A DNA stretch of 64,000 bases from Bacteroidota bacterium (GCA_018267615.1 JAFDYD010000019.1:29327-93326); one strand, 5' to 3'. Counted from the first letter of the stretch, positions 4,873-31,536 are shown. Notes: generated from the sequence alone by a model not told the origin. Numbers and translations: made by a program.

Positions 4873-4897
4873 ATTATGGTTTAAAAAGTTTTATCAA

Positions 4898-5242: not shown

Positions 5243-5297
5243 TTTTAATTTCCAATTTATAGTTTACAGTTCTGTTCCTATTATCAAACAAAAACCG

Positions 5298-5579: not shown

Positions 5580-5588
5580 GTTAATTTG

Positions 5589-5704: not shown

Positions 5705-5705
5705 G

Positions 5706-6545
5706 TTACTGCGATATTTTCTTTCCGCTTTTTCTCTGGATAATCATCTTATCACTTCCTTTCCCTTTCGTTCTTGTCTTCAACCCTCTTGAATATTGTC
5801 CATTTCTAGAACGAGGCTGACCACCTGAAGCTTTTCCTTCGCCACCACCCATCGGATGATCAACTGGATTCATCGCTACGCCACGGTTTCTTGGACGAAT
5901 ACCTCTCCAACGATTGCGGCCTGCTTTACCCATGCTCTGCAAACTGTGATCACTATTTGAAACAACACCCACAGTTGCATAACAATTGATCAACACTTTT
6001 CTCAATTCGCCTGAAGGCATTTTCAATACTGCATATTTTTCTTCTTTGTTCGTCAACTGCGCAGAAGCACCCGCGCTGCGAACCAATTTGCCACCCTGTC
6101 CAGGTTGCATTTCGATATTATGAATATTTGTACCGAGTGGGATATGTTTCATCTGCAAAGCATTTCCTACTTCAGGAGCAACATCATCACCAGCCAACAC
6201 TGTTGCACCAACTTGCAAACCTTGCGGTGCTATGATATATCTTTTGTCGCCATCATTGTAATTCAACAACGCAATGAAAGCGGTTCGATTAGGATCATAT
6301 TCAATCGACGCAACTGTAGCCGGAATATTTTTCTTGCTTCTTTTGAAATCGATGACACGATACATTTTTTTATGCCCGCCACCGATATAGCGCATCGCTC
6401 TTCTACCCTGGGCATTTCTACCGCCGGTTGATTGCACTTTTTCAAGAAGTGATTTTTCCGGTTGATCCGTTGTTACTTCGGCATAAGCATTACCAATTCT
6501 CCATCTTGTTCCTGCTGTTACCGGTTTATATTTTTTTAGTGCCAT
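5706..6545 (-). CDS. rplB: 50S ribosomal protein L2
   Basis: [29 protein letters not shown]. Confidence 0.98.
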
Positions 6546-8662: not shown

Positions 8663-8968
8663 TCATGCTTTGATTTCAACATCCACACCGGATGGCAAAT
8701 CGAGCTTCGACAATGCATCTACAGTTCTAGAGGTAGACGTGTAGATATCCAACAAACGCTTATGCGTATGCAATTGGAACTGCTCGCGCGCTTTTTTGTT
8801 TACGTGTGGTGAACGCAAAACAGTAAAAATTTTCTTCTTAGTGGGTAACGGAATAGGACCTGTTACCACTGCACCTGTACTGCGTACTGTTTTTACGATC
8901 TTTTCGGCAGATTTATCTACCAGGTTGTGATCGTATGATTGTAATTTGATCCTGATTCGTTGAGACAT
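8663..8968 (-). CDS. rpsJ: 30S ribosomal protein S10
   Basis: [31 protein letters not shown]. Confidence 0.98.
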
Positions 8969-13917: not shown

Positions 13918-14661
13918 TCAACCGATCAATTTGAGGAACTCATCTTTTTTCCTTCTGGCTAAATCCACAAAATTTCCATTCTGCATTTCAATTTGGCCGC
14001 CATCACCCCGGATGTAGCGTTTTATGTATTGGAGATTGATAATATGAGAATGATGTGCGCGGAAAAAAACTTCTGCCGGCAACAGATCTTCGAATTCTTT
14101 AAGCGTTCTGCTTGCAACCAGTTTTGGGTGATTGGTGAAATAGATGGCGGTGTAATTACTTTGAGCTTCGAGATGAATAATGTCGCCAATATTAAAAAAG
14201 AGCAGACCATCCAATGTCGGAATCGCCAGTTTGTTTAGGGCTAATCCGGGATGGAGATTTTCCTCTAACGCTTTCAGTTTTTGCGGTGTATTGTTTTGAG
14301 ATTGTTGTTTTATTTTTTCGACGCATGAGCGCAACTCTTCTATATCGACCGGTTTTAATAAATAATCGAACGCCGCAAACTTGATCGCCTTGATTGCATA
14401 TTGATCGTACGCTGTGGTAAAAATGATATGAAAATTTTTGTTTTCAATTCTCCGAAGCATTTCAAATCCATCCATGCGAGGCATTTCGATATCGAGGAAA
14501 ATAATATTTGGTTGAAATTTTTTTATTTGTTCGATGCCTTCTTCACCGCTGGTCGCCTCAGCAACGATGGACAGATCTTTGCAATAGTCAATTATTTTTT
14601 GTTTTAAGGCAAGCCTTCCTTTCAATTCGTCATCTATAATAATCGCCTTTAGCATGATCAT
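13918..14661 (-). CDS. LytR/AlgR-family response regulator (REC + LytTR)
   Basis: IIIDDE, FLDIEMPRMDGF, FTTAY, DYLLKP; C-terminal FFRAHHSHIIN; ATGA overlap with the kinase. Confidence 0.95.
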   Translation of the reverse strand: MIMLKAIIIDDELKGRLALKQKIIDYCKDLSIVAEATSGEEGIEQIKKFQPNIIFLDIEMPRMDGFEMLRRIENKNFHIIFTTAYDQYAIKAIKFAAFDYLLKPVDIEELRSCVEKIKQQSQNNTPQKLKALEENLHPGLALNKLAIPTLDGLLFFNIGDIIHLEAQSNYTAIYFTNHPKLVASRTLKEFEDLLPAEVFFRAHHSHIINLQYIKRYIRGDGGQIEMQNGNFVDLARRKKDEFLKLIG

Positions 14662-17600
14662 TGAATTTTTAGTATTACCTGCACACGAGTACCTGTGGGC
14701 ATTTGCTGTTCATGTAAATCTGTAATCGTAACAGAAGCTTTATTTTCTCTATTGAACAATCTTACCCTGTCGTTGCTCATTTCAATTCCATAAGATTGCT
14801 TGTCTTTTTTATCTGTATTTTTTATTGCCTGTCTCCCTACTCCGTTATCTTCCACAATATAAATCAGGTGACCATTTTCTTTCGTTACAGAAATAGAAAG
14901 TTTTCCTTTAGCATCCGACCGGTATCTCAATCCATGTAAAATTGCATTTTCAACGTAAGGTTGTATGACCAATGGAGGAACTTTATAATCGTCTTGCAAC
15001 AATGCAGCATCCGCATCAATCTCGCAGGAGAATTTGTTATCATTCCTAAATTGCTCGAGTTCGATATACAGTTGCAATGTTTCCAGATCCTTTGTCAATG
15101 TCACCGTATTTTGTTTTGAACTATCAAGAATATTCCGGATCAGTTTTGCAAATTTGTTGAGATAAACAGTCGCGAGATATTTATCATTGCTTTGAATCAA
15201 CGCATCGATGCTATTGATACAATTAAAGATAAAATGCGGGTTCATCTGTGCACGCAAAGCCATCATTTCTGTTTCAGCCACCTGTTGTTTCAACGCGGCT
15301 TCGCGGCGAACTATAATTATCCTTCTTTTGAACAACAAATAAATAAATGAAGCAATTAACAGTATTGCTCCAACCCTGAACCACCATGTTTGCCAAAATG
15401 GTGGATCGATAATGATTTTAAATGAAGTAATATTTTTCGTGTTCGCCTGGTCGTCAGTCGTCACTTCAAAATCATAATGACCCGGTGGCAGATTGGTGTA
15501 ATTCGCTTCACCGGAAAGATCGGCGGTTACCCAGTTGCGGTCGATATCATGTAACCGGTAATAATATTTTTTATTCTTTAATTGAGAAAAGTCGAGCGCG
15601 GCAAATTCAATGGTTAAAAAATTTTGGGCATAGCTCAAACGAAGTGGCTTACTTTCTAACGTCAACGAATCAACGAAAAATCGCTTGCCAAAAATTTTCA
15701 GCCCTGTTATTTCAACGGGCATCACAGCGTTCACGTTGATATCAAGTGAATCGGGAGAAAAACCAATTGCTTCAGTTGCCGTACTGGTCAACCATCGTCC
15801 ATCGCGCAGCACGTAAAAATTATCCATATCAAAAGACGAGGTCACAACACCGCGTTCGGTGTGATAACTGATCAATTTGTTTTCCTCGATATTATATCGA
15901 TACAAATTATAATCCGCCGTGAACCAGATATTTCCTTTCTTATCTTTTCCAATTGCCATCACTGACGCAGGGAGGATTTTCTTGTTGAAATCAGGAACTG
16001 TAAACTGTTTTGTGATCATATTAAAAAAACAGAAACCTCCATTCTCAAGTCCTACGATGAGGGTGGTGTCGTTTAATTCTTCAATTCCCATACAGCCACT
16101 TGCATAATTTTTTTGGGGGGAATAAGCAGCCGACAATGTTCTGCTTTGCCTGTCAAATACTTTTACACCACTATAGGTACTGATCCAGCACCTGTTTTTG
16201 CTATCGATATAAATGAACTGTATTCCGTTGTTGACAAAATCTGGTGACATGGTTCCTCCATAACTGATAAATTGATTTCTCTTGTCACTCCACTCGATAA
16301 TTTTTCCGTTGTGTAAGCCAAACAAAACATTTCCCCCCGAATCCGCTCGCATACACCGGATGGTTGAATTTTCAAAAATAGCAGGCTGAGTAGTTGTAAT
16401 TGAACCAGTCGATGGTTCATACACATGCAGGTACCCATGTTGGCATCCAACCCAGATTTTTCCATCATCTCTTTCAATTAAGTTCCATACCATATTGGAC
16501 TCAAAACTTTTACCAAAATTTATTTTTTTGATAAAGTTCCAATCTTTATCAAACACAGTTACACCGCCACCATAAATACCCACCATCAAATCTCCATTTC
16601 TTGTTTCCAGGAAAGAAGTGATGCCGCCCTTCGACAATGTTTTCTCATTATTATCATCATGCCTGATCGTTTTAAAATATTCGTGATATGGATTGAAAAT
16701 ATTAATGCCCTTATCTGTGCCTAACCAGATATTGTCATCGCGATCCTGGAAAATTGTTGATACTTCGTAATTGTACTGAAGTCCGTTGACATTGTTATTG
16801 TCGGAGCGGATGCTGGTGAAACTATCATTTTCCGGATGATACCGCAGTAATCCAACATTACATGTCGCAATCCACAAATGCTTTCGGTTATCTTCGAATA
16901 TGCAAGTCACATACATCGGGTCGTTGTTATTGCTGTCGTGATTCTTTGCTCGAATTTCGGGCAATGAATAAGTAACAATTTTTTTAGTCCCTGCAACACA
17001 CTTATAAAATTTGTGGTTCCAAGTATAGAACCAAATATTATCCTGACTGTCTACCATAACACCACGAAATCCCGAATTCTCCATCTCAAGGATCGGATGG
17101 CGGAGAACGTTATTTTTTTTCGTGTATACTTGGCCGGTACTATCGTCGAACATCAATACATAATCATAACTGACAGCCCATGTCTGGTGGTTTTTTTCAT
17201 CGTACGCTATGGAGAATGAGTTGCAGGTAAATTTTTTGATGGATGCATCATAATGATAAACATAATAGTATCCAAACATCCAGTAGTCGCCACCTACACC
17301 GCTATATCTTTTTTTCCCTACAGTATCCAACGCAATATCTGTGCTGTCAAAATCTGAAACTTTATTAGTGAGCAAATTAAATTTTTTATTGCCTGCAATG
17401 GATACCATGAACAACTGATGATCCTGAGAGGGTTTGATATTAACTACTGCAATCAAACTTTTATTCTTGTCATTCAATTCATCTCGGTAGGTGATGAAGC
17501 GTGTACCATCGTATCGCTGAAATCCATTGCGTGTGCCTATCCATATAAAACCTCGTTTATCCTGCGATATCGAATAAACTGCATCATTCGACAATCCATC

Positions 17601-17702
17601 GAGGTGACTGATATGCCTGAAAATATATTTCGACTGGCTTCGTCCGTCCACTGCAACAAAGAAAAAAACAAGACTCAATAAAATATAGATTACAGAGCGC
17701 AT
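14658..17702 (-). CDS. LytS/YehU-type sensor histidine kinase with periplasmic beta-propeller and Y_Y_Y domain
   Basis: Repeated D..G.IWIGT blades, ANYTNLPPGHYDFEV, TM after PPFWQTWWF, H-box ALRAQMNPHFIFN, QPYVENAILHG, EDNGVG. Confidence 0.93.
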   Translation of the reverse strand: MRSVIYILLSLVFFFVAVDGRSQSKYIFRHISHLDGLSNDAVYSISQDKRGFIWIGTRNGFQRYDGTRFITYRDELNDKNKSLIAVVNIKPSQDHQLFMVSIAGNKKFNLLTNKVSDFDSTDIALDTVGKKRYSGVGGDYWMFGYYYVYHYDASIKKFTCNSFSIAYDEKNHQTWAVSYDYVLMFDDSTGQVYTKKNNVLRHPILEMENSGFRGVMVDSQDNIWFYTWNHKFYKCVAGTKKIVTYSLPEIRAKNHDSNNNDPMYVTCIFEDNRKHLWIATCNVGLLRYHPENDSFTSIRSDNNNVNGLQYNYEVSTIFQDRDDNIWLGTDKGINIFNPYHEYFKTIRHDDNNEKTLSKGGITSFLETRNGDLMVGIYGGGVTVFDKDWNFIKKINFGKSFESNMVWNLIERDDGKIWVGCQHGYLHVYEPSTGSITTTQPAIFENSTIRCMRADSGGNVLFGLHNGKIIEWSDKRNQFISYGGTMSPDFVNNGIQFIYIDSKNRCWISTYSGVKVFDRQSRTLSAAYSPQKNYASGCMGIEELNDTTLIVGLENGGFCFFNMITKQFTVPDFNKKILPASVMAIGKDKKGNIWFTADYNLYRYNIEENKLISYHTERGVVTSSFDMDNFYVLRDGRWLTSTATEAIGFSPDSLDINVNAVMPVEITGLKIFGKRFFVDSLTLESKPLRLSYAQNFLTIEFAALDFSQLKNKKYYYRLHDIDRNWVTADLSGEANYTNLPPGHYDFEVTTDDQANTKNITSFKIIIDPPFWQTWWFRVGAILLIASFIYLLFKRRIIIVRREAALKQQVAETEMMALRAQMNPHFIFNCINSIDALIQSNDKYLATVYLNKFAKLIRNILDSSKQNTVTLTKDLETLQLYIELEQFRNDNKFSCEIDADAALLQDDYKVPPLVIQPYVENAILHGLRYRSDAKGKLSISVTKENGHLIYIVEDNGVGRQAIKNTDKKDKQSYGIEMSNDRVRLFNRENKASVTITDLHEQQMPTGTRVQVILKIQ

Positions 17703-17742
17703 CTCTTAAAGCTACACGAAAAAAATCACAAGCACTGCCATG

Positions 17743-20025
17743 TCAGTGCAATGTAAATATGTCGACCACCGAACTAACACTTCCACTAATCAGAGCCCCT
17801 CCACCAAACAACGCCTTATTACCGGATGATGCGGCAGCCAATCCTCTTCTTTTCGAACTCAACTGCGCTGTCGTCCATGTTCCGGTGTCGGTATCATAAA
17901 CGTCTACTGTTTGAGAATAAGATACACTGCCCTCATCACCTCCGCCAAAAAGAACTTTGTTGCCAATTGCTGTTGCAGCAAGCATTGTTCTTTTCGTACT
18001 CAGATGAGCAACCGACCAGGTATTGGCAGATACATCGTAAATATCTACCGTGCTTGAAAAATAATTACTGTTAATGATAGCGGAATTAGTTTGTCCGCCT
18101 GCAAAAAATATCTTCCCGCCTGCCGCGGTTGCGGTAAGATTATATCTGGCTTCACTCAACTGCGCAGTCTGCCATGAATCGGTGAGTACGTCGTAAATAT
18201 CTACCGTTGCGGTAGGCAAGGCATCCGGTGAAGCCGCCTTCAACCCGCCAGCAAAAACGATCTTATTACCCATCGCCGCGGCTGCAAGATATCCGCGGCG
18301 TTCGCTTAGCTGACTAGTTGTCCAAGTGCCCGATGTTGTATTGTATATATCCACCACATTGGAAAAAATATTTCCACTGTTCGAATAATAAATATCACCA
18401 CCTCCAAAAAGTATTTTATCACCTGCTCCAGCGCCTGCCAAAAAATCTCTCGCCTCACTCAATTGAGCACTGCTCCATGTTCCAGATAAAGCATTATAAA
18501 TATCCACTGTTTTGCTATACAGGCTACCACTGGCGCCGTTGTTGCGCCCTCCGGCAAATAGTATCATATTACCTGCGGCCGCACCTGCAAGATCCGATTT
18601 CTCCTCAGTGAGTTGATGGCTTGTCCAACTTCCCGTATTCACATCATAAATATCCGCCGTCTTTGAAAAAAAAGAACCTCCATTTACTAAACCACCGGCA
18701 AAAACAATTTTCCCTGCCGATGCCGCTGCAGCTAACGCTTCTTTAGATTCCGATATCGACGTACTGCCACTGAGGCCTACTGCACCGGCCGAGGCGCCAA
18801 GGTATTTTATTGTAGTGCCGCCACTTATCAGATTCCCCACCTGAACAAAAATCGAAACATCTGTATTCGAAGGAATCGAATATGGCGGCATTATAACAAC
18901 GATCTTTTGATTAGTCCAGGACAAGATTTGAGGATCTGCTTGCGTAACTCCTAAATATATCAATGCTATTGACGAGGGCAACGTCCTGTCGCCAAAGAAC
19001 AGACCGGTGAATGTAACAGTATCACTACCTCCGAAAGTGTAACCTCCTTTACTCGATTGAATATTGTCGACGCGTGGAATGATCTGCATACGATAAGGAT
19101 CACTCGGTACGTCATTCACGCGAACTACTACCTGTGCAAAATTAGAATCACGAGGAATATTCGTCTCAAACGTACTGTCTGTATTAATCAGTAACTGGTT
19201 ACCATCCGGTGTAAAAATGGAGTTTGGATAGGTAGAAATAATTCCGTCCCGCACGATATGATCTGGTTTTACAGATACGCCGTTAACATAGAGTTTAATG
19301 CTGCTGTCTTGCGGAGGAAAAGGTTCGAAATTGACAGAATAACCTCCCTCATTCCAACCGTGCCCAACTTTGGTGATTACCGGCTTTACCGATTTAGTAT
19401 AACTGAACTGAACGCCGTTCGAAGTTTTTCCACTAACCATCACCGTTACTACAACAGTAGCTTCGGCTTGATTAGTTGCATCTGGCGCTGAAACAATGAT
19501 CAGCGTATCGGAAAATTTTTTGATTGTAGCGGGCTTCGTTCCAAAATTGACTTTTACAGAATCCTGGTTCTGCCCGAAACCGACTCCTCGAATGGCTACG
19601 GTTGTATCGACCCATCCGAAGGAAGGAGAAATGCTATTAATGCTGATTGCTTTTTCATCATAAGTAAATAGCGGACCTTCCGCTTCTTGGTTGTTTACAG
19701 ATATGTGGACATGCCCTGTTCCTGTGTTAGAATTGATCGTAGCCAATACAACTGTGCTCGTAGAAGGGGAATCTATTTGTACCAGTACACCATTTACACT
19801 CACCTTATTCTGAAACGCATGATTGGAAAAGCCGGTTCCATATAGTCTTATCTGTGTTCCTGTTCGCCCAGTCGAGGGCGCAATGCTATCAATAACCGGA
19901 TTATCCGGCGGCTCCTGGAAAACATTCACCTTCGCACAGGTTGATATCAACACAGAAAAAAGAATTCCAACGACAACATTTCCGCACCATCGCAGCATGT
20001 TCTGATTGATATATGAATCATTCAT
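17743..20025 (-). CDS. Putative lipoprotein: IPT/TIG domains + seven kelch-like repeats
   Basis: Hydrophobic stretch ending VLISTC (near-lipobox); PVIDSIAP..GT.I..G.GF IPT units; 7 x (LAAAA.GNK..F.GG...VDIY...W) at 17743-18753; true start may be MLRWC (19998). Confidence 0.8.
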   Translation of the reverse strand: MNDSYINQNMLRWCGNVVVGILFSVLISTCAKVNVFQEPPDNPVIDSIAPSTGRTGTQIRLYGTGFSNHAFQNKVSVNGVLVQIDSPSTSTVVLATINSNTGTGHVHISVNNQEAEGPLFTYDEKAISINSISPSFGWVDTTVAIRGVGFGQNQDSVKVNFGTKPATIKKFSDTLIIVSAPDATNQAEATVVVTVMVSGKTSNGVQFSYTKSVKPVITKVGHGWNEGGYSVNFEPFPPQDSSIKLYVNGVSVKPDHIVRDGIISTYPNSIFTPDGNQLLINTDSTFETNIPRDSNFAQVVVRVNDVPSDPYRMQIIPRVDNIQSSKGGYTFGGSDTVTFTGLFFGDRTLPSSIALIYLGVTQADPQILSWTNQKIVVIMPPYSIPSNTDVSIFVQVGNLISGGTTIKYLGASAGAVGLSGSTSISESKEALAAAASAGKIVFAGGLVNGGSFFSKTADIYDVNTGSWTSHQLTEEKSDLAGAAAGNMILFAGGRNNGASGSLYSKTVDIYNALSGTWSSAQLSEARDFLAGAGAGDKILFGGGDIYYSNSGNIFSNVVDIYNTTSGTWTTSQLSERRGYLAAAAMGNKIVFAGGLKAASPDALPTATVDIYDVLTDSWQTAQLSEARYNLTATAAGGKIFFAGGQTNSAIINSNYFSSTVDIYDVSANTWSVAHLSTKRTMLAATAIGNKVLFGGGDEGSVSYSQTVDVYDTDTGTWTTAQLSSKRRGLAAASSGNKALFGGGALISGSVSSVVDIFTLH

Positions 20026-20079
20026 AAAAAAAATTTATCAGGCATTTGATTATTGGCATCTCCCTAATGAAACGCCACA

Positions 20080-22302
20080 CTATTTTCCAATAGCAACTCC
20101 TTTTCTTTCGTATTTGACAATTTGTGAATTCACCAAGACCGATGCGCCACCGTCGCTCGTTACTGCTTTAATTGCATATTGATAATTTCCTTCTCCAGGA
20201 AGAGTATTATCGATGAATTCATTTTTATCTGCTGCGACACTTCTGTACATCTCGAGTCCATTATTGTTGTAGTTCCTGTATACAATGAAGCGCATATGCG
20301 TTTTGTCCACCGAATTATATTTCCATGTCAAATGAATTTCACGATTGTCTGTTATGTCCACTTTGAGTTCATCCACAGCGGGTCGCTTACCACTGTCGTA
20401 TATACGTGCACGTAAGGGAAATGAACGTTCAGAAGACAAACCCGAAGAATCGACGGCAGTCAGAGAATAATCATATTCTTTCAATCGCACAATATTGCGA
20501 TCGACGTAAATTGAAGTATCTTTTTTCAAGGAATCCAGCGACTTCCAGACGCTATCATTTTTCTCTTTTCTCCAAATTACCTGCCTCGCGACATCCTCAC
20601 TACTGCTGCGCGCCCACTGCAATACCACGCTGCTATCCGTTATTAAAAAGTGATTGATAACAGGTGCTACAGGTGGAACGATATCAGGCTTTGTCAATTC
20701 AATAATTTTAGAATACGCGCTCGGGTTTCCTGCTTTATCGAATGCACATATCCGGTAATAAATATGACGGGTTAGTGTTTTGATGCTAATCGTATCCGTA
20801 AATAAAGTATCCGTGAGGAATTTACTGTTCAATATATAAAATGCATGTGTGGGATTGTTAGATGCATATACATTGTAACCTTGCAGATCCATTTCTTTGT
20901 TCCATCGCCAATGCAAACGAACGACTCCTGCAGTATCAATGCTTCCTGCTAAACCCACCGGCATTGCCGGCGCGATGCTATCCACAATCATCGCATACGC
21001 CGGCATGGAACGCGATGCATTTCCCGCTGTGTCGATCGCTGCAACGATGTAAAAATTTTTATCCCAGGTGACGGCAAAACGATCGACATAACTTTGTGCC
21101 GTGGCCGGAAGCAACACAGTATCGAGCGGAAAAAAAGGACCGTTGACGGAACTTCCACGTCCCACTAAAAATCCAGCGAGATCTTTTTCCTTTGCGGATT
21201 TTTGCCAGCTAATTTTCACTTCACTGCCTTTTGTATTTTCCGCTTTTACATTGAATGGACTTCCCGGACTCGTTTTATCTGCTCCTGCAATTTTTACGGG
21301 AGAAGAAGGGTTGCTGATTTCACCAAATGCAGTCACGCCTCTGACCCGATACACATACAACTTATAATTTTGTGGAATGCTGTCAGTGTAATGCATCCAA
21401 TCTCTTCTTTCCTTATCATTGCCTCCACCATCGATATATGGCAATGTATTTAAACGACGAAAAGATTTTCCATTATCATCCGAACGCTCGAGATAATAAC
21501 AAGTGAATTGATGAACAGCCGCAACCTTGTTCCAATACAACGTAATTGTCTTATCCCACGGCATCGCAAACACAGGCAGCATATCCGGAAGTTTATATGA
21601 TTGTTTGGTGGAAACCAAAACCGAAACAGTGTCCGCAGCCAATTGGCCGAGTGCAGGAGAAATAATTAAGTAGTAGTACAATTTATCTTTTTCAATCGTT
21701 TTATCTTCCCAACTCCACGCCATTCCTGTTGCGATTTCAGGATGCAGATCGGAATTGAGTAATGCAATCCCTAAACGATTTTCCATGTCCGCATACTTCG
21801 TATATGCTTCTCCCCAATTGAACTTTCCATTTTGCTTACCAGATGTTTCAAACTTCTTTCCATACAGTACTTCAGCAGCGATAGCCGCCGCAGTATCTTC
21901 TGGAGGAAATTGTTTTTTCCATTGATCGAGTGGAAATGGTTTTAATGGAGAGGTTGTCAACTGCGTTGAATGCGTAAGCGGATCGCTGCTTTTGGAATCC
22001 ACTTCAAATCGATACAATTGATAACCTGATTCATTGGTTTTATCCCACGCAGCAGCGTTCTTCGGAGCCCATCGTAGTATTACGGAAGAACCAAAATATT
22101 TTCCCATCGCGATCAACTTTTTCATATTGATAAGACTGTCTCTTCCGGAAACTACACTCGTTGTTTTCTCATTTTTTTCTTCTTTCGCTTTTTTCTTCCG
22201 CTGCGTGTTTCCATGCTGAATGAAACAAAAAAGAAAAATGATACAGGCAATCATCCTGCACAACCACATTTTTCTCAATATGAAAAGAGATATACGTTTC
22301 AT
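20080..22302 (-). CDS. Secreted protein with five fibronectin type III-like repeats
   Basis: Signal peptide; repeated P......V.L.W ... Y.Y.V.A..G..S units. Confidence 0.8.
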   Translation of the reverse strand: MKRISLFILRKMWLCRMIACIIFLFCFIQHGNTQRKKKAKEEKNEKTTSVVSGRDSLINMKKLIAMGKYFGSSVILRWAPKNAAAWDKTNESGYQLYRFEVDSKSSDPLTHSTQLTTSPLKPFPLDQWKKQFPPEDTAAAIAAEVLYGKKFETSGKQNGKFNWGEAYTKYADMENRLGIALLNSDLHPEIATGMAWSWEDKTIEKDKLYYYLIISPALGQLAADTVSVLVSTKQSYKLPDMLPVFAMPWDKTITLYWNKVAAVHQFTCYYLERSDDNGKSFRRLNTLPYIDGGGNDKERRDWMHYTDSIPQNYKLYVYRVRGVTAFGEISNPSSPVKIAGADKTSPGSPFNVKAENTKGSEVKISWQKSAKEKDLAGFLVGRGSSVNGPFFPLDTVLLPATAQSYVDRFAVTWDKNFYIVAAIDTAGNASRSMPAYAMIVDSIAPAMPVGLAGSIDTAGVVRLHWRWNKEMDLQGYNVYASNNPTHAFYILNSKFLTDTLFTDTISIKTLTRHIYYRICAFDKAGNPSAYSKIIELTKPDIVPPVAPVINHFLITDSSVVLQWARSSSEDVARQVIWRKEKNDSVWKSLDSLKKDTSIYVDRNIVRLKEYDYSLTAVDSSGLSSERSFPLRARIYDSGKRPAVDELKVDITDNREIHLTWKYNSVDKTHMRFIVYRNYNNNGLEMYRSVAADKNEFIDNTLPGEGNYQYAIKAVTSDGGASVLVNSQIVKYERKGVAIGK

Positions 22303-22312
22303 AATTTGGCAA

Positions 22313-22975
22313 TTAAAATTTCAACGGAACTTCGATATTAAAAGATGAAACCGTCGGTGTATATGCATTGAATTGAACAGCTGCGCCGTTGATGATTTGC
22401 AGCGGTGGAAAATGCACGGGCGTTTGATCATTCGCGCGCACAACCATCGTGGATCTTTTTGTACCATAATTTTGGAATTGGACAAAACTCGCGTCACTCT
22501 GGATATACGCAGAAGCTGCTATTGCCAGTGCGATATCGAGAGGCGTTCCTGACAGGTATAAACTCTGCGCAGCGGTTTTGTAATCGAAATAACCACTCCA
22601 CCATGCTAACGCCGACTGGTATGCGAAAGTCAGATTCTTGTCGTTTGGTGGTGGAAGTGTAATGATCGGACTACTCGCTTTTACAGGTGTTGTAATAGAT
22701 ATTGCCGGCGGCGGAATAGTAACCGCAGCGTAATTAATGGATGAAGTAGGTGCAGTGCTTGTTATAGCCGATCCATTTAGTGCAGCCATTGCGCCCGAGT
22801 TGGAAAGTTTGAACTGAGCAAAAGCAGGGACCACTTCAATCAAACAACATATAAGCAACAAACAAACGCACCTCCACATCGGATAATATTTTCGTGTGTA
22901 CGTTGCCGTTATTACCTGTTCTGAAAAATTCAGTTTACCAATATTCATCGTGATATGTTTTGAATATTTAATCAT
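22313..22975 (-). CDS. Hypothetical secreted protein with Ser/Thr/Pro-rich linker
   Basis: In-operon ORF, ATGA overlap with the 1881-aa gene; signal-like MWRCVCLLLICCLIEVVPAFA suggests a later start (about 22879). Confidence 0.65.
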   Translation of the reverse strand: MIKYSKHITMNIGKLNFSEQVITATYTRKYYPMWRCVCLLLICCLIEVVPAFAQFKLSNSGAMAALNGSAITSTAPTSSINYAAVTIPPPAISITTPVKASSPIITLPPPNDKNLTFAYQSALAWWSGYFDYKTAAQSLYLSGTPLDIALAIAASAYIQSDASFVQFQNYGTKRSTMVVRANDQTPVHFPPLQIINGAAVQFNAYTPTVSSFNIEVPLKF

Positions 22976-25900
22976 GGCTGGATTTTGACACTTGTTGCTG
23001 AAATTTTAACCGGAGACGACGGTTGCGTCGATGTTTTCACCGCACTGAGATTGGGCGTGGTCAGGATACTATGATTGCCCAACAATACATAAGGAATTTC
23101 ATTCGACTGCAATGGTGGATCATATCCTGTTACCATGAATGGTTCCCTTCCTCTCACATATGCACGATTCACCGTGAATGTATTGCTGGTGTTGCCGGAA
23201 GGACTGTTCAGTTCCCACAGACTATTGTAAGAAACCATCGGATCAAACTGACTCATTTGTTTGTAGTTTGTTACCAGCGGTGCGATGACGCCCAGCATCC
23301 ATGGGTTATCACCATATTTTTCGTCGAGATTTACAAGTGGCGGAATAATCCAGTCATTCGATCCATTCCCCGAACCATCATATGCACAACCGTTAGCATC
23401 ATACACATCCAAACCTTCAAGCATCGATACCTGGAAGAAAGGCATCAGCAGGTTCCAACTCACGCCGCCAGTTTGATAAGCGCCACCCATTTTATCTTGC
23501 AGTGTTTTAAACCGGCTCGTTCTGAAGAAATAATCGTAGATCTCAATATCATCGGGCTTACTGAGTGAAGCAGTAGCGTCTGCTGCAAAATTTTTCAGCA
23601 CCACATAATTCGTCTTAGCTCCGTTGGATGGATCATTCAAATATTGGTTGCGCGTAGTAACAAGCGGAGAATTCGCGCCCATTCTCAACTGATCGATATA
23701 TTGCGTGAGATCAGCACCTGTTTTTTTGTAAATAGGTCTTTTTACAATTCTCAATTTGTAAACCGTTGCAGGCGACAATTGCGGAATATCAAAATTGAGA
23801 TACTTGCCTTGCTGCGTAACAGGTTCTTCAAAATTATCTTTCGTCGAAATAAATTGTATAAACAAATCATAACCGGTTACTACAGTAGACTGAAACGCCG
23901 TTCTTAAATTGGAGCCCGTTGAAGCAGGAGGATCCTGCATGCATGGAATATCGCGCACTAACTGTATATATCCATGTGCACGCTGACCCGGCAAAAAATA
24001 ACGTTGATTGGTAAATGGATAATTCGCACATACAGCCGGGCCACCAATTGTGTGCCCGAGTATATCGAGCCCCATCGACACACTTTCATCCAATCGCGTA
24101 ATACAACCACCAGTCATAAATGAAACCGTTGTATCCTGTATGCGGGACTCAGTTACCTCTTGCCAATTTCCGTTGGCATCACGCTGAAATCCGTACACTG
24201 TTAATTTAACAAGATGTTTCGCCGATGGATCAAAAGCATTTTGCCATCCATACAACAACGCATTGTGATAAACTGCCTGGATGGAAGCGCCTCCTTCAGT
24301 ATATACCGATCCATCTTCGTTCATATAACCAGTATATGTATACGCTTTTCCACCCACTTCACTCACACTAAGTTTTTTCACGATAACCAGCAAAGTCTTC
24401 TGCACATTTTTACCGGTGTTGTCATCTTTTACTGTCACCGAAAATTCCTGGTTGACGGGGAAATTGAAAGCCACATTGATGTTGCTCATGATGCTGATAT
24501 TCGCAGCTCCATCTCCGGGGAAAATAGCGCTTACCAGCGGCAAACCACCAAATGGATTCGCACTGAGTTTACACCCGCCTTCATCCGCGCTTGAATATTT
24601 AACATGAAAGTTCATGTGTCCGCTGATCAATCCATCGAGCACGCTGTAATCTGATTCGAGCCATCCATCAAATACAAATGGATTTGGAAAACCGGCTTGC
24701 AGTGTTGCTTTGAAACCGACCTCCGCCACGCTGATTTTGCCTTTATAAAACCACACATCTACTACGAGGCCAAATGCAAATGAACCGCTCGCGTAGAGAT
24801 CTCCAAATGCATAATATCCATCAAGCCCAAGTAAATCTCCATTATCGCATTTGCGTGCGTCTTTGATCAATGCGAGATCAAATCCCAATCCTGCTTTTAG
24901 TTCCAGGTAAAATATAAGAAACTCAAGATTCAAATCTGCGGCAGCACTCGCTCCTAACAATACACCTGCAACAGTCGGAATTGTTTTTGTTTGTTGTGTG
25001 ACAGGATCCGTATATGAATCCGTACTCATAATTTTTCCGGTGACTTCGTCGTATATAGATTGCAGACTGGCAGGCAGTCGCAAAACATTTCCTACATTCT
25101 GATAAGTTTTGAAATCGAACTTGAGTAGACCTAAAGTTGACAACGTTAAATTAACGCGGTGGTCCGCGGGCTCGGGCTCTCCAATTTTAAAATACCAATC
25201 ACCCGTATTAAAATTGGTGAGTATGCCGAGCATCCCGTTTCCTTTTATAAAACCACCAGGTAGGTTGATATTCATATTAATTCCCGCAGTGAATTCGTTC
25301 TGCGAAAAATCATATTGAATAAATCCGTCGCCACGAACCATCGCTGATTCTATTTCGCCGAGTTTTGTGTACAAGCCTGCATCTATATTGATTGCAAGTT
25401 TATGCAAGGCCAAAGTCTGTTGATCTATCTCAACACTCAACGTCCCCATTCCTACAAAAACGTTTCCATCGGTTGTTCCCAAAGTGACGCTTCCTTTAAA
25501 TCCGGTTACACCTGCAGCAGGTTTATACATCGACATCGGATCTACAGACGTAATATATTTCGTTACCATCGGCTCCTGGTTTAGCGTCATGTTGTAATAT
25601 ACGCCGCCGCCAAATCCAAATATGCTCAATGGTACGATGCCGCCACCAATAGGAATTCCTGGCGGTGGTAAATTGAAACTTGCGCCGACAAAAAAATAAT
25701 TGAAACTTTTTTTACCAAAAAGTGCGCTTGCTTTCACAGAGAATCCAGGAGGAAAAGTGGCATCCTGCAACACACCATCCACGCCATTTCCCCATTGCGG
25801 ATTATCATCAAAAAATCTTACAAAACCATGAACATGCACAGGGCCAACCCATCCCTCCAAGCCAATTTCATCTACATGCACTTGAGGGAGGCGCGCTTTC

Positions 25901-28617
25901 AGTTTACCACCGACCAAATCAAAACCGCCTACTATAGAAAATGAAGTATGCGCTTTCGGAATGCTGGCAATGTCAGCGAGTGTAACATCTAATGAAAATA
26001 CAAGTCCGAGTTTGTCGGGACTTAATTTTGGTGACTCAGGAAATGATATTGGTAAGCCGTTGATAAATTTTTCTGGACTTGATTGACCGGTTACAAGTTG
26101 TCCGTCGCTGATATACGGCGCCGAAGAATTCAACGTAAGATTTTGAAAACTGATCGCTTTGATATCTACCTGTCCCAATCCTCCGGGCAATGTCGGATTC
26201 AAAGAAAGATTGCCGGTCAATTTTGCAGTGGCTTTGAATCCTACATCTCCGCCAACAGTTACACCGATATAAGAAGATTTGTCGATATTCATATGCACGA
26301 TCCACATCGGCACATTCAAATTATCCTTCGGCTGAATCACGAATTGAAATTGCAATCCATTATTGTTACTCAACGTGCAGGTATAATCCAATTCTGAATT
26401 AGGATCTGTTTCATCTGCTATCGGCAGTATTACCCGCCCTTTCATGTTGCCCTGCACGAAGGAATTTTTTTTGAAAACACCTTCTATTCGATCAACAGAA
26501 TATGCCCATGTATCAAGTGCGCCTTGATCTATCGGCAAAATATTATCGATGCCAAGTGTTCCGCTGAGACCCTGGTTGTCGATTATAAAACTTTGTGCAG
26601 ATCCAACCAATCTATTGTTGCCTGTAAATGATTTCAGCAATGCGGGCAATTCCACTTGCATGGAAGGAATTAAAAATCCGCGCCATGTTGGAACAAGTCC
26701 GTCTGTATAATCTGCCGGCATTCCAGCCGGATTTTGTTTATCCGAATGATCGTAAAAAGCACTACCGGGCGCAAAATTAAAATCTGTATTACCGGTGATA
26801 TGGAATGCATCAATACTTACAGATGCAATCCAATCAGCCCAGGATTTTGTGGATTCAACAGTGAGTAACGCTTTCACCGGCGTACCATCTTTTTTTTGCA
26901 ACAGTGCCGGAGAGAAACTGTATTCACCACGAATGCGCATGCTCTGAAATCCATCTGCGCCAAATTCAATATAAGTTCCCAGGTCGCCTGCGTCGGCGGC
27001 TTTCAATGCAATGCCTGTTGTAGCGAGATCAAAATCTTTTTCGAGATAGATAGTCGCTTGTCCACATAAAGTTTTTTCCTTCGAGAAGCAAATGCCTCTT
27101 CCACCCAATGCCACCGTCATGCCTTCTTCCGGAATTTCGAAGGCAGCGCCTGCATCAAAATAAGCCTGCTGCGGTGTGAAGACCATATTGGTAACAGCAA
27201 TGGTGATCTGGCTCGAACTCACATTACTGATTCCTAACGGTAAGCTGTAGCCGAACGCCTCCTGCGGATTCAAATTACTGGTAATGTAATTGGAAATGTA
27301 TTGCGGAAAATTTTGCGCTTGTGCAGGATCCAGTGTGATGTTCGGATTCGTTGGATCATAATCCGGTAACAGGCTTGCCGCATCGCTTCTGCGTTTAGCT
27401 ACTGCATTTCCTGAAATAACCTGGTTACTGTTATTGATTTTGATATTCTGAAAACTGACACTGACCGGTATCAATTTTAAAACAGGCACCTGGATTTTTC
27501 CTTCGCCGGTTAAAGCGCCGCCGTTGCTACTGGTAATTTTTGTGATCGTTAAATCGAATCCATCGATGGTGAGTTTGCTTCCTACCTGGATAGCAGATAA
27601 ATTACTCTTTGATTTTGAATCGATGATCTGCATTTTACAATCATCGCTACATGTCACGATGCCTTTTGAATCGATTGTCATGGCCATCATCGTTGTGGCC
27701 AACTGCCCATATTCAAATTCGATTACTTCACTGCTTCCGTTATTTCGAAAAGTTGCGCCGCCCGAAGGATCGTTGGCCGTTATTTTCATTGCATATGTGC
27801 GGCCCGCTAGCAATTGTGGATATAATGCAGAATATAAAAACATCGGCGTTCCAGTGACCGTTGTTTCGAAAAATGGAACACTGGTAGATTGCATAGCGTC
27901 GTTAGGATTTCTGCCACCAAAAATTTCCACCAGTCGAATGGTGTATTGTGTTGATGGAGGTGCGCCGGGTGGTGTTGTCCATCGGAAAATAATATTTTGT
28001 GCCAGGCCGGTAATCGCAATGGTGTCCTGATCCATCGGGCTTAGGATGGTCGGCGGCTCGAGTGTGGAAACCGAAAAAATATTGCTGCAACCAATAGGAT
28101 CTTCGTCAGACAACGGTTTGTGTGTGGCCGCATCAAAAGCGCGTACACATACCTGGTAGGTTCCTTCCGGCAAACCTTGTTCGCCAAAAACAGAAGGTTT
28201 GATGCTATTGCTGCCGGAAATATATACGAGGCTGTTCGGATCAAATAAACTGCCGGCTTCAATGTCGTTCAAAGTTTTTGTTTCAAAAGCTTTTAGGTTG
28301 ATGGATGCCGGCTGATATCCTTTGGCAGTAGTTACTGTCACCCCGTTATCCCCGGTTACTGTTCCATTCAAGTAAATCGTATAGGCATTACCGGTATGAT
28401 TTGTGATCATAACCATTACCAGTCCCGGTGTATTGCTGAACTGGTAGAGTTTAGTAGGATATGTTCCCTGCGGCAATCGGTTGATATGAACACTAATGCT
28501 GATTTCCTGTTGCGCCAAAACGGTGTGCGTACCGGATGTACATATGATCAGCAGAAGAAAGTAAAAATATTTTTTGAATCGAATCAACATATCGTGAACA
28601 TTTAAAGTCAAATTCAT
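22972..28617 (-). CDS. Very large secreted multi-domain hypothetical protein (TANFOR-like N-terminus, long beta-rich core, Ig-like and C-terminal domains)
   Basis: 5.6-kb open frame, signal peptide ending VLA-QQ; LPEGTYQVCVRAFD...LEPPTILSP N-terminal module recognised by eye; family name not verified by search. Confidence 0.75.
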   Translation of the reverse strand: MNLTLNVHDMLIRFKKYFYFLLLIICTSGTHTVLAQQEISISVHINRLPQGTYPTKLYQFSNTPGLVMVMITNHTGNAYTIYLNGTVTGDNGVTVTTAKGYQPASINLKAFETKTLNDIEAGSLFDPNSLVYISGSNSIKPSVFGEQGLPEGTYQVCVRAFDAATHKPLSDEDPIGCSNIFSVSTLEPPTILSPMDQDTIAITGLAQNIIFRWTTPPGAPPSTQYTIRLVEIFGGRNPNDAMQSTSVPFFETTVTGTPMFLYSALYPQLLAGRTYAMKITANDPSGGATFRNNGSSEVIEFEYGQLATTMMAMTIDSKGIVTCSDDCKMQIIDSKSKSNLSAIQVGSKLTIDGFDLTITKITSSNGGALTGEGKIQVPVLKLIPVSVSFQNIKINNSNQVISGNAVAKRRSDAASLLPDYDPTNPNITLDPAQAQNFPQYISNYITSNLNPQEAFGYSLPLGISNVSSSQITIAVTNMVFTPQQAYFDAGAAFEIPEEGMTVALGGRGICFSKEKTLCGQATIYLEKDFDLATTGIALKAADAGDLGTYIEFGADGFQSMRIRGEYSFSPALLQKKDGTPVKALLTVESTKSWADWIASVSIDAFHITGNTDFNFAPGSAFYDHSDKQNPAGMPADYTDGLVPTWRGFLIPSMQVELPALLKSFTGNNRLVGSAQSFIIDNQGLSGTLGIDNILPIDQGALDTWAYSVDRIEGVFKKNSFVQGNMKGRVILPIADETDPNSELDYTCTLSNNNGLQFQFVIQPKDNLNVPMWIVHMNIDKSSYIGVTVGGDVGFKATAKLTGNLSLNPTLPGGLGQVDIKAISFQNLTLNSSAPYISDGQLVTGQSSPEKFINGLPISFPESPKLSPDKLGLVFSLDVTLADIASIPKAHTSFSIVGGFDLVGGKLKARLPQVHVDEIGLEGWVGPVHVHGFVRFFDDNPQWGNGVDGVLQDATFPPGFSVKASALFGKKSFNYFFVGASFNLPPPGIPIGGGIVPLSIFGFGGGVYYNMTLNQEPMVTKYITSVDPMSMYKPAAGVTGFKGSVTLGTTDGNVFVGMGTLSVEIDQQTLALHKLAINIDAGLYTKLGEIESAMVRGDGFIQYDFSQNEFTAGINMNINLPGGFIKGNGMLGILTNFNTGDWYFKIGEPEPADHRVNLTLSTLGLLKFDFKTYQNVGNVLRLPASLQSIYDEVTGKIMSTDSYTDPVTQQTKTIPTVAGVLLGASAAADLNLEFLIFYLELKAGLGFDLALIKDARKCDNGDLLGLDGYYAFGDLYASGSFAFGLVVDVWFYKGKISVAEVGFKATLQAGFPNPFVFDGWLESDYSVLDGLISGHMNFHVKYSSADEGGCKLSANPFGGLPLVSAIFPGDGAANISIMSNINVAFNFPVNQEFSVTVKDDNTGKNVQKTLLVIVKKLSVSEVGGKAYTYTGYMNEDGSVYTEGGASIQAVYHNALLYGWQNAFDPSAKHLVKLTVYGFQRDANGNWQEVTESRIQDTTVSFMTGGCITRLDESVSMGLDILGHTIGGPAVCANYPFTNQRYFLPGQRAHGYIQLVRDIPCMQDPPASTGSNLRTAFQSTVVTGYDLFIQFISTKDNFEEPVTQQGKYLNFDIPQLSPATVYKLRIVKRPIYKKTGADLTQYIDQLRMGANSPLVTTRNQYLNDPSNGAKTNYVVLKNFAADATASLSKPDDIEIYDYFFRTSRFKTLQDKMGGAYQTGGVSWNLLMPFFQVSMLEGLDVYDANGCAYDGSGNGSNDWIIPPLVNLDEKYGDNPWMLGVIAPLVTNYKQMSQFDPMVSYNSLWELNSPSGNTSNTFTVNRAYVRGREPFMVTGYDPPLQSNEIPYVLLGNHSILTTPNLSAVKTSTQPSSPVKISATSVKIQP

Positions 28618-28651
28618 TTAATAGAGTCAACCCACGAGTATTTTCATTTCG

Positions 28652-30370
28652 TCAAAAAGAAAATCCATATCCGACTTCTACACGGCTCTCTGAATATTTC
28701 GGATAATATGATGTGGGTTGATCAGGCGTATTGCTCGTAAAATATGCGGTCAGATGTAGCGCATGTTTCTTATAAAAGTTGTACCTGCTCTGCAATGATG
28801 CTGTAATGATTTTTCCTTTTTCTTCGTTGCGTTTGCTCAAGAGATATCCGCCACTGGCCGAGATGGTGATCTTCCCTTTCTTCCAGGATTTAGATGCACC
28901 AACCGTGGCGCCCATGTTTTGATCGGTCAATTGATCGCCCTTCATGGCCGTCTGATTCAGTGAAATGAAAAAAGAAGTATTATGTTCAACCAGGTTCAAT
29001 TGATAATTCAAAACATAATTGGTGGTGTTGATGTCACCGCTGACGCTGTCAATTCTTGCCGGGTTCAGTTCCCTCGCCTGGTTGATATTGGCTGAAAAAA
29101 CAATTGAATGCGCGACGCTGGTGCCTGCAATTGTATAACGCGGCGTAATAGAAAACTGCCTGCTCGATTCCACCAATTTCAATGAATCGGCAAAGCGTAT
29201 AGTCTTCACCGTTTGATTGATGGAATAATTACTGAAACTAAGATCGATCCCAAATTGCCGTGTGATTTCTGCAGACAGATTTGCGGACCCGATTATTTTT
29301 TTTGATCGGGCTCTTTTTGACTTGGCAAGATCATCATGCTGAATGCCGAGACTACCACTAAAACGCAACCTGCTTTTGAATAAGGTAAATGAAGGAGCCA
29401 CCGTGTAACTTTCCAGGTCGTTGTTCAAAAAATAAGCTCCCATCGATTGATATCCCGGATCGATATGACGATATTGAAACCTGAGGGAAAAATTTCTTGT
29501 CTTGTAGCGGATAGCAGCTTCGATGGCACCGTATAATTCACTGCTCGTATTCACGCGAACAATACGGCTGATTTTTTTCACATCGTTATCAAACGAAGAA
29601 TCCTGCACGAGCGGAGAATTAATATCGTTTGTATATAGACTCATCGCGCCATCACTTTCAAAACTGAGATGCTGTTTCCAAATGCTCAAACGCATATTAT
29701 ATCCAACGACTGTGTTCTCCGCAGGTGTGATCCCCGATGAGTCGATAAAACCCTTACTCATTTTTATGCTCGAAGGATCATCTTTTGCTTTCAATGCGAT
29801 CAGATCGATAAAATTGTTTTGTGTTCCGTATCCAATTTTAATTGCACCGCCTGTCCGCCGATAAGAGAAGTTAGAGAAGTAAAGACTTTGTGCAGTATCC
29901 AATGAAGTTGCCTTGTTGAATTGACCGTACATCACAGCGAATCTGAATTTGCCTGGATTGAGTTCAACGCCTCCGCCAAGAAAAGTATGTCCGGCTAAAG
30001 TGAATGGTGAAAAATTAAGACTGCGATAGCCTGCGTGAACGGTTATCCATTTGTAAGTCGGACTCATTCCGAATTGATTGAATGGCTGCGAGAAACTATT
30101 CTGCTGTTTTCCGATAATAAATGAGAAAGGTATTCGCCATCCATATATAGAAATGACAGGAGAACCAGTAATCACATAATTAAAAGGGAGATAACGATTG
30201 GGAATGCCGTTGGCATTGTAGAAAATCGCGGTAGCGTCAACACTTCCTGATAAAACAAAAGGTTTTGCGTGAATCATTTGCTCCACCTGCTGCGCATGCA
30301 ATCTTTGCGCAATTGCAAATGAAGAAATCATCAAAATAAAAAATAATTTATTCCATGTAGGGGTGTTCAT
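28652..30370 (-). CDS. Putative outer-membrane beta-barrel protein of unknown function
   Basis: Signal peptide (..RLHA-QQ), alternating amphipathic strands throughout, C-terminal RVEVGYGFSF beta-signal. Confidence 0.8.
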   Translation of the reverse strand: MNTPTWNKLFFILMISSFAIAQRLHAQQVEQMIHAKPFVLSGSVDATAIFYNANGIPNRYLPFNYVITGSPVISIYGWRIPFSFIIGKQQNSFSQPFNQFGMSPTYKWITVHAGYRSLNFSPFTLAGHTFLGGGVELNPGKFRFAVMYGQFNKATSLDTAQSLYFSNFSYRRTGGAIKIGYGTQNNFIDLIALKAKDDPSSIKMSKGFIDSSGITPAENTVVGYNMRLSIWKQHLSFESDGAMSLYTNDINSPLVQDSSFDNDVKKISRIVRVNTSSELYGAIEAAIRYKTRNFSLRFQYRHIDPGYQSMGAYFLNNDLESYTVAPSFTLFKSRLRFSGSLGIQHDDLAKSKRARSKKIIGSANLSAEITRQFGIDLSFSNYSINQTVKTIRFADSLKLVESSRQFSITPRYTIAGTSVAHSIVFSANINQARELNPARIDSVSGDINTTNYVLNYQLNLVEHNTSFFISLNQTAMKGDQLTDQNMGATVGASKSWKKGKITISASGGYLLSKRNEEKGKIITASLQSRYNFYKKHALHLTAYFTSNTPDQPTSYYPKYSESRVEVGYGFSF

Positions 30371-30568
30371 CAGGTTAACGCTTTAGAAGATGGCAGGTTC
30401 AGGGAGGATATTGAAAAGTTTCGAGCTGTTCAGTGGCGTGCATTAGAAATAAATGGCGAAAAGTAAATATCAATTATTTGATTGCTGATAATTTTGCGAT
30501 TTAGCCGGTGGGGAGAACGACTGAGCATTTGGAGCAATAAGTCGAGATTAGAACCCTCAAAAAAAAGC

Positions 30569-30598
30569 AAAAAAAATCCGCAGTAGAATTACTGCGGA
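30569..30598 (-). terminator. Intrinsic terminator after rpsG
   Basis: tccgcagta-gaat-tactgcgga 9-bp stem followed by a U-run on the minus strand. Confidence 0.85.
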
Positions 30599-30622
30599 CT
30601 CATTTATAAAAAATTGGTTGAA

Positions 30623-31090
30623 CTAGATTCTGAAGTGAGCAAAAGCTTTATTTGCTTCTGCCATACGGTGTGTATCTTCTTTTTTCTTAAAAGCACCACC
30701 TTCACCTTTGCTTGCTGCCACGATTTCATTAGCAAGTTTTTCAGCCATGCTTTTTCCATTTCTTTCCCTACTATAACGGATAAGCCATTTCATGCTAAGG
30801 GAAATTTTTCTGTCTGCACGAACTTCTGCGGGAATTTGGAAAGTAGCACCACCAATACGGCGACTACGAACTTCTACAGCCGGAGTCACATTATTCAATG
30901 CTCTTTTCCAGATTTCGTAGCCATCTTCATTGGTCTGTTTTGCAACTTTGTCAATTGCATTGTAGAAAATTTCGAAGGCTGTATTTTTTTTACCCTGCCA
31001 CATCAGGTTATTGACGAAACGAGTAACCAGCTGGTCATTGTATCTTGCGTCTTTTGCGAGGGGTAATTTTTTTGCTTGCGTTTTCCTCAT
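30623..31090 (-). CDS. rpsG: 30S ribosomal protein S7
   Basis: [30 protein letters not shown]. Confidence 0.98.
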
Positions 31091-31143
31091 TGATTTATAA
31101 AATTATTTCAGGTTTCGCTTATTCTTATTAAAAATATTTCAGG

Positions 31144-31536
31144 TTATTTTTTTGCGCCTGCTTTTCCTTTTTCTCTTTTAGTTCCGTATTTAGAGCGGCT
31201 TTTTTTACGATCCTTCACACCGGCAGTATCCAGGCTTCCGCGAACGATATGGTAACGTACACCCGGTAAATCTTTAACGCGACCACCGCGTATCAACACG
31301 ATAGAGTGTTCCTGAAGATTGTGACCTTCACCAGGAATATACGCGATAACTTCAACCTTATTCGTCAAGCGAACCTTAGCCACTTTACGTAAAGCGGAGT
31401 TTGGCTTCTTTGGAGTTGTTGTATATACGCGGGTACAAACGCCACGACGCTGTGGACATGCATCCAAAGCCCTGGACTTGCTTTTTGCTCTGATGATCTC
31501 TCTTCCTTTTCGAACTAATTGCTGTATTGTAGGCAT
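31144..31536 (-). CDS. rpsL: 30S ribosomal protein S12
   Basis: [37 protein letters not shown]. Confidence 0.99.

Follow-up and report, generated by a model that had tools for sequence, protein, structure and literature searches.

Genes at the locus

The window, i.e. the whole stretch of 64,000 nucleotides that was analysed, contains a 16.7-kb block (13918-30622) extending from the gene of a predicted outer-membrane barrel to that of a LytTR regulator. The block sits in the str operon between rpsG and fusA. The features needed for the analysis are the following:

30623-31536, minus strand: rpsL and rpsG (rpsG at 30623-31090), upstream flank of the block
30574-30601, minus strand: intrinsic terminator after rpsG, 12-bp stem plus T run
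28652-30370, minus strand: barrel gene; 572 aa, signal peptide, predicted 26-strand outer-membrane beta-barrel of an unannotated family
29918-30088, minus strand: most conserved barrel sector, codons 95-151 (end of loop L1 and strands b4-b7, including QPFNQFGMSPTYKW)
22972-28617, minus strand: giant gene; 1881 aa, Sec signal peptide, body class B
27706-28617, minus strand: head of the giant, codons 1-304; signal peptide, putative divergent TANFOR beta-sandwich, FN3-like beta-sandwich
22313-22975, minus strand: 220-aa signal-peptide protein of a fast-evolving family that is kept at this position in class B; its start overlaps the giant stop by 4 nt
20080-22302, minus strand: 740-aa FN3-repeat protein, the fourth class-B gene (14 of 16 loci)
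17743-20025, minus strand: 760-aa TIG/Kelch-propeller protein, a lineage-specific addition (Chitinophagaceae loci) that is not conserved across class B
14658-17702, minus strand: sensor kinase with Reg_prop propellers, Y_Y_Y and a LytS-type His_kinase domain
13918-14661, minus strand: LytTR response regulator
11428-13575, minus strand: fusA (EF-G), downstream flank of the block

It had been proposed from the sequence that the barrel gene heads an operon. Indeed, a strong terminator (30601-30574) parts the ribosomal genes from the barrel operon, and the genes downstream of the barrel follow at short distances (giant, +34 nt; 220-aa protein, -4; FN3 protein, +10; TIG/Kelch protein, +54; sensor kinase, +40; LytTR regulator, -4). 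An exact TAnnTTTG motif is absent upstream of the barrel on the coding strand, and sigma-70-type matches occur there at chance level. The LytS-type kinase and the LytTR protein are candidate regulators of the module; similar kinase/LytTR pairs occur at a distance of at most 10 kb from the barrel gene in about 35 of the 80 barrel loci, a count given without a background comparison. Inside the TIG/Kelch gene, DNA direct repeats of 54-55 nt with a spacing of about 150-300 nt (17857-18511) reflect very regular Kelch blades.

A genome of the same genus shows the empty site, which consists of rpsG, 268 nt and fusA (G158; see also locus L093). Moreover, a Puia metagenome-assembled genome (L068) carries a decayed copy at the same site, in which residues 1-251 of the barrel, 642-733 of the histidine kinase and 175-246 of the response regulator are left. 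Neither flanking direct repeats nor an integrase were found at the borders of the block. Four other loci, from Pedobacter and a Flavobacteriaceae genome, have the module a few kb downstream of fusA (L035, L041, L044, L063). The window also contains a gene for a 736-aa signal-peptide protein (9058-11268, minus strand) between fusA and rpsJ (8663-8968), which is a second break in the normally contiguous str-S10 ribosomal cluster.

The barrel and its family

The open reading frame at 28652-30370 (minus strand) starts with ATG and encodes 572 aa with the N-terminal signal peptide MNTPTWNKLFFILMISSFAIAQRLHAQQ; the protein ends with ...VGYGFSF, i.e. with a terminal Phe. The size of about 550 residues stated in the original prediction suits the mature protein (about 545 residues) rather than the precursor. 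The barrel character, the terminal Phe and the three quoted motifs could all be recovered in this reading frame, the motifs being QPFNQFGMSPTYKW (residues 95-108), HAGYRSLNFSPFTLAG (112-127) and FLGGGVELNPG (130-140). The motif region had been described as an N-terminal segment, but it is not separate from the barrel: it takes in strand b4 with its turn and the end of loop L1.

The AF2 model of the barrel, which was built from a 32-sequence alignment, is all-beta (pLDDT 78.7, pTM 0.65). Mean-field DCA on 328 family sequences, a modest depth (Meff 238), recovered the AF2 hairpins and resolved the N-terminus. Residues 38-54, 59-75, 78-88 and 97-107 (b1-b4) form consecutive ladders, and b1 (38-54) and b26 (559-571) are mutual best partners (z 4.7); some ladders are weak, including that between b4 and b5 (z 1.7). 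The mature protein has only about 11 residues in front of b1. Given the pairing of b1 with b26 and the consecutive ladders b1-b4, the model has no N-terminal plug, and the same pairings ruled out a barrel of 22 strands plus a hatch. AF2 and DCA agree in this respect, and the protein is predicted to be a closed, plug-less 26-strand wall with both termini in the periplasm. A Foldseek search returned only generic large barrels. The best match was MtrB (6r2q_B; E 6e-9, TMq 0.50, 11% identity). SlpA, the PapC usher (TMq about 0.4) and TonB-dependent transporters came next, and Occ-type and general porins were listed as well (TMq 0.25-0.31). At the level of the model, the barrel resembles MtrB only generically in its fold.

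The barrel protein matches no model in Pfam and none in NCBIfam, and a PDB sequence search gave no match. When 32 family members were compared with Pfam and NCBIfam at E values up to 10, only scattered noise was obtained, including a Porin_4 match in a single member (E 0.069). These searches gave no assignment to a known family. Thus, the original statement that POTRA, TonB plug and OmpA domains are lacking agrees with the profile searches as well as with AF2 and DCA, and the idea of a large barrel of its own class, which matches no porin or TonB-dependent family, has stood. Individual candidates were rejected for the following reasons. For a TonB-dependent transporter, matches to PF07715 and PF00593 are missing, residues 38-107 belong to the wall, and there are 26 rather than 22 strands. 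For an OmpA-like protein, PF00691 is missing and the protein ends with its last strand (...GYGFSF). For a general or Occ porin, only one of the 32 members gave a Porin_4 match, the TMq values are 0.25-0.31, and there are 26 instead of 16-18 strands. A literature search did not retrieve a paper describing the barrel family.

The family is very large. A word-indexed search uncovered more than 1381 relatives, nearly all of which are called 'hypothetical' and none of which has a Pfam domain. A barrel profile searched against 1.84 billion representatives detected 2889 clusters (50% identity) at E <= 1e-3, all of Bacteroidota type and with lengths of about 550-590 aa. The profile also produces weak matches (E 1e-5 to 1e-17, profile positions about 160-360) to single-copy proteins of 800-930 aa in many Bacteroidota (e.g. 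L083 2094-4499, L084 1925-4378, L085 1885-4641 and L086 2665-5412). These proteins have no Pfam or NCBIfam match, and their conserved operon encodes a protein of about 355 aa, sometimes a FecR-domain protein, and a CHASE2 adenylate/guanylate cyclase. They were considered as a distant known relative of the barrel and discarded, because they are likewise unannotated, belong to a different operon and provide no link to a known family. They may represent a second unannotated outer-membrane family that is tied to cyclic-nucleotide signalling.

The conservation of the barrel is unevenly distributed. It reaches 0.68-0.80 in strands b4-b7 and 0.6-0.8 in b4-b9, in comparison to 0.47 overall and 0.33-0.40 in the C-terminal third; the surface loops L2 (120-125) and L6 (304-318) have values of about 0.7. 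Residues Q95, P96, F97, N98, Q99, G101, S103, P104, Y106, K107, H112, G114 and Y115 are invariant in the 32 sequences. The conserved residues predicted to face the lumen (G101, S103, K107, H112, G114, R116, G132, G134, E136, R143, G149, R172 and K178) are mainly glycines and charged residues. This pattern would suit a partner-binding sector better than a diffusion pore.

Linkage of the barrel to giant proteins

Eighty barrel loci from Chitinophagales, Sphingobacteriales, Cytophagales, Bacteroidales and Flavobacteriales were inspected, 76 of which are informative because downstream sequence is available. A homolog of the giant, usually of 1.8-2.8 kaa, is the gene after the barrel in 72 of these 76 loci, and in about 70 of the 80 its reading frame starts -37 to +160 nt from the barrel stop. 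Only three Arcicella loci and one deletion remnant deviate from this pattern. The original prediction had tied the barrel to the 1881-aa family and the FN3 genes. The linkage to giants stands, but the partner is not the 1881-aa family as such, as the body of the window giant occurs in only 19 of 69 barrel-linked giants, and the FN3 protein of 740 aa is a partner only with body class B.

Furthermore, the co-occurrence of the barrel with the N-terminal head of the giants was determined in 301 genomes that were evenly drawn across the phylum. The barrel is present in 52 and the head in 50 genomes; both occur together in 50, and the head alone in none (Fisher p = 4e-55, phylogeny ignored). The head is encoded within 15 kb of 54 of the 63 barrels, and all 15 'orphan' heads belong to genomes with a barrel elsewhere. 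The barrel is a single-copy gene in about 17% of the sampled genomes, and the genome from which the window originates has one barrel and one head, which are adjacent.

A few loci differ from this arrangement. No giant or TANFOR head adjoins the barrels of three Arcicella species (L048, L057, L061), and in two genomes (G092, G035) a barrel homolog is present and a strong head is found nowhere in the genome. These barrels may be orphans, or their partners may be too divergent for detection. Locus L089 (family f5, genus g21) encodes a barrel homolog of about 820 aa (3405-5861, minus strand), in which about 250 extra residues come after the usual C-terminal strand; directly upstream lies a gene for an SprB-repeat protein with a T9SS C-terminal domain. 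In L090 (1686-6421) and L091 (924-5767), TANFOR-headed proteins of 934-960 aa have an RCC1-repeat propeller as their body, and the neighbouring barrels are divergent proteins of 644-693 aa that the main profile barely detects.

The TANFOR head as the co-inherited partner

The partner of the barrel is the TANFOR head, i.e. the first ~300 residues of the giant, and not the whole giant. The window giant was divided into seven segments, whose HMMs were compared with the sequences of 69 giants linked to a barrel. Segment 1-310 matched all 69, and each later segment matched only 17-19 of them. The bodies fall into three unrelated classes (A, n = 32; B, n = 20, including the window giant; C, n = 17). 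Bodies of classes A and C show only CarboxypepD_reg-type beta-sandwiches. In comparison to class-A giants of its own family, the window giant is 59-63% identical up to residue 304 and shows no similarity beyond this position.

The inheritance of the barrel follows the head and not the body. Barrel identity correlates with head identity (r 0.80) and is nearly independent of the body class (0.45 within versus 0.43 between classes). The barrel tree requires at least 19 body-class changes, the minimum possible number being 2, and several well-supported sister barrels are accompanied by different bodies. In 'bacterium A37T11', two loci share one 2.5-kb block of 79% nucleotide identity that extends from the barrel start to about 870 nt (about codon 290) into the giant gene and then ends. 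Three further sister pairs show the same pattern. As adjacent genes can be co-inherited with or without a contact between their products, the block demonstrates a selected unit and not a physical interaction.

In the head model, which is confident (pLDDT 85.2), the roughly 270 mature residues form two beta-sandwiches. The first is a putative divergent TANFOR domain at about 41-183, in which C157 and C177 are invariant; the second, at about 191-306, is FN3-like. In the PDB, the head matches only generic tandem FN3/Ig folds (TM 0.2-0.3), and the fold search ruled out that it is a TPS domain. The TANFOR model TIGR02542 recognises 41 of 43 barrel-linked giants at E <= 0.01 (best 2e-25). The window head reaches 19.4-22.8 bits (E 7.5e-4 to 6.7e-5), the cut-off being 67 bits. 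Because the score lies below the cut-off while 41 of 43 relatives match, the sequence of the window head points to a divergent TANFOR member. New contributions of this analysis are the boundary between head and body, the three body classes, the test on the barrel tree, the strand count from DCA and the map of conservation.

The tight association of barrel and head also bears on the alternative of a common nutrient channel or diffusion porin whose gene just happens to adjoin that of the giant. Apart from the porins listed by Foldseek and the Porin_4 match mentioned above, which would favour it, this explanation has to account for a near-perfect linkage and co-occurrence with the head, for the shared recombination block and for a barrel that is single-copy and accessory. 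Moreover, the conservation is concentrated in one lumen sector instead of a constriction loop, and 26 strands are far above the 16-18 strands of porins. We therefore regard a porin as very improbable.

Class B has a characteristic gene set of barrel, giant, a secreted protein of 175-220 aa and an FN3 protein of about 700 aa. The class-B body is conserved to about residue 1734 (15 sequences), with Cys residues and Gly-rich hydrophobic motifs. The window giant has no Pfam match and, as judged by Pfam and NCBIfam, neither a T9SS C-terminal domain nor a toxin domain; a profile of its body gave no match in the PDB and only stray FN3 and Big_5 matches in Pfam. The giant is not called a toxin because the class-B body is conserved and lacks a toxin domain. 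The possibility of a polymorphic toxin was also dismissed in view of the gene following the giant, which encodes a secreted 220-aa protein kept across class B and is not an immunity gene, and of a body that is conserved to the C-terminus.

In a further alternative, the giant would stay in the periplasm or span the envelope and the barrel would be its outer-membrane anchor, the two forming an envelope-biogenesis or transport machine such as TamA-TamB or LptD with the Lpt bridge. A full-length conserved, Gly-rich body without a toxin domain would be in line with such a machine, and so would the 26 strands, which is the strand number of LptD. This scenario is nevertheless improbable: bodies of three unrelated classes are swapped on nearly identical barrel-head units, and elsewhere the same head bears RCC1 propellers or published toxin domains (PMC7073777). 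Furthermore, the module is accessory, as a genome of the same genus lacks it and a close relative has only a decayed copy, and no TamB, AsmA or LptD model was matched.

Putative role of the barrel

A TANFOR protein was detected in outer membrane vesicles of T. forsythia (PMC10682907), and the export route exists in the literature only as a hypothesis, namely the T9SS (Jana, Salomon and Bosis 2020, PMC7073777). This proposal rests on neighbourhood enrichment and considers annotated domains only; the words 'barrel' and 'porin' do not occur in the paper.

We propose that TANFOR-headed proteins have the barrel as their dedicated translocon or anchor in the outer membrane, a reading to which we assign a probability of roughly 0.6. 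The barrel is the best candidate for the outer-membrane route of TANFOR proteins because it is inherited as a unit with the TANFOR head. The role of a secretion or assembly channel, which had already been suggested in the original prediction, is one that we infer from genomics and fold. In the proposed mechanism, barrel and giant would both reach the periplasm via Sec. The head of the giant would then dock on the barrel or in its interior, at the conserved b4-b9 sector of the wall, presumably by contacts to K107, H112, R116, E136, R143, R172 and K178 beside the lumen-facing glycines. The barrel would pass the variable body to the cell surface or hold it there, the outward direction of transport being the presumed one, and the head might stay in the barrel as a plug or anchor, like LptE in LptD or MtrA in MtrB. 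Barrels of 26 strands can enclose domains of 15-35 kDa, as in MtrAB and LptDE, and this lumen capacity makes a plug-and-anchor geometry plausible for the barrel and the head.

Alternatively, the T9SS could export the giant, with the barrel as an accessory that receives or anchors the substrate at the outer membrane, as PorP/SprF does for SprB-type adhesins, or that shuttles cargo like PorV. The T9SS may be involved because SprA is present in all 50 module genomes, as compared to 54 of 80 genomes without the module. Moreover, SprB-repeat proteins with a T9SS C-terminal domain are encoded beside some modules (L089; PMC7073777). However, the 26 genomes without SprA all come from one family, and the association thus counts as one phylogenetic event; since the baseline absence is confined to this family, the presence of SprA does not discriminate between the readings. 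C-terminal domains of type A (TIGR04183/PF18962) or type B (TIGR04131) were found in none of the proteins of the window operon, including the giant, the FN3 protein and the Kelch protein; as a positive control, PF18962 was detected in the neighbouring gene of L089. In addition, the co-inherited conserved signal is N-terminal, whereas T9SS signals are C-terminal, and the barrel lacks similarity to PorP/SprF or PorV models even at E values up to 10. Taken together, export of the giant by the T9SS seems unlikely to us.

The barrel and the TANFOR head might constitute a previously undescribed secretion or surface-display system of Bacteroidota that is independent of the T9SS, a step that we take only tentatively. 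With similar reserve, such a system could be envisaged as following a two-partner logic with non-homologous parts, in which a POTRA-less 26-strand barrel serves a docking module of two beta-sandwiches that is carried by interchangeable giant bodies, propellers or toxins.

Relation to known outer-membrane systems

The window giant shares several properties with the published TANFOR proteins (TIGR02542; PMC7073777). Its head would place it in the family, a Sec signal is present at the N-terminus, the conserved N-terminal domain is combined with variable bodies, and FN3 genes are enriched nearby, as reported previously (PMC7073777). In contrast to the TANFOR toxins of that study, the window giant has neither a toxin domain nor an immunity gene, and the conservation of its body extends to the C-terminus.

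Two-partner secretion of type Vb (FhaC-FHA, CdiB-CdiA) is a parallel in logic. In both cases, a dedicated barrel gene lies beside a giant cargo gene, an N-terminal recognition module of about 300 aa precedes variable bodies, and some cargo genes are 'orphans' whose barrel is encoded elsewhere in the genome. The components are not homologous: the barrel is predicted to have 26 and not 16 strands and has no POTRA domain, and the modelled head consists of two beta-sandwiches and not of a TPS beta-helix. Membership in Omp85/TpsB was not supported, as POTRA and Bac_surface_Ag/ShlB matches were absent from the 32 members at E values up to 10.

Other systems share the architecture in part. MtrB-MtrA includes the best structural match, a plug-less barrel of 26 strands whose gene lies beside that of the enclosed protein, but the identity is 11%, PF11854 is not matched and the operon encodes no multihaem or decahaem cytochrome. 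LptD-LptE likewise consists of a 26-strand barrel with a small beta-rich partner in the LptD lumen, and conserved Pro and Gly residues are found in early wall strands. Unlike LptD, the barrel has no LptD/OstA match and no N-terminal beta-jellyroll, and it is accessory (52 of 301 genomes) instead of essential. In the case of PorP/SprF with SprB-type adhesins, a Bacteroidota barrel is also encoded beside its cognate giant surface protein; the barrel described here is roughly twice that size, its cargo lacks a C-terminal T9SS domain, and none of the 32 members matches PF11751/TIGR03519 (PorP/SprF) or the PorV/PorQ models at E values up to 10. Finally, the PapC/FimD ushers, large 24-strand barrels that pass Ig-like subunits, are among the Foldseek matches. 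In contrast to these ushers, the barrel has no PF00577 match, no plug and no N- or C-terminal periplasmic domains, and there is no chaperone gene at the barrel.

Implications

The TANFOR proteins, a class known from the literature that comprises giant proteins and polymorphic toxins of Bacteroidota, are without a known outer-membrane route, the sole proposal being the T9SS (PMC7073777). A barrel family of this size that has neither a name nor a model in Pfam or NCBIfam and that is present in every sampled genome with a TANFOR head is therefore of interest. By analogy, the logic of barrel and head would be that of a partner-specific barrel as in two-partner secretion, with parts that are not homologous. 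Concrete experimental constructs follow from two results, namely the end of the unit near codon 300 of the giant and the conserved b4-b9 face of the barrel. If the barrel is a translocon, it would represent a new outer-membrane export route in a phylum that is important in soil, water and gut ecology, and it would offer a modular display scaffold.
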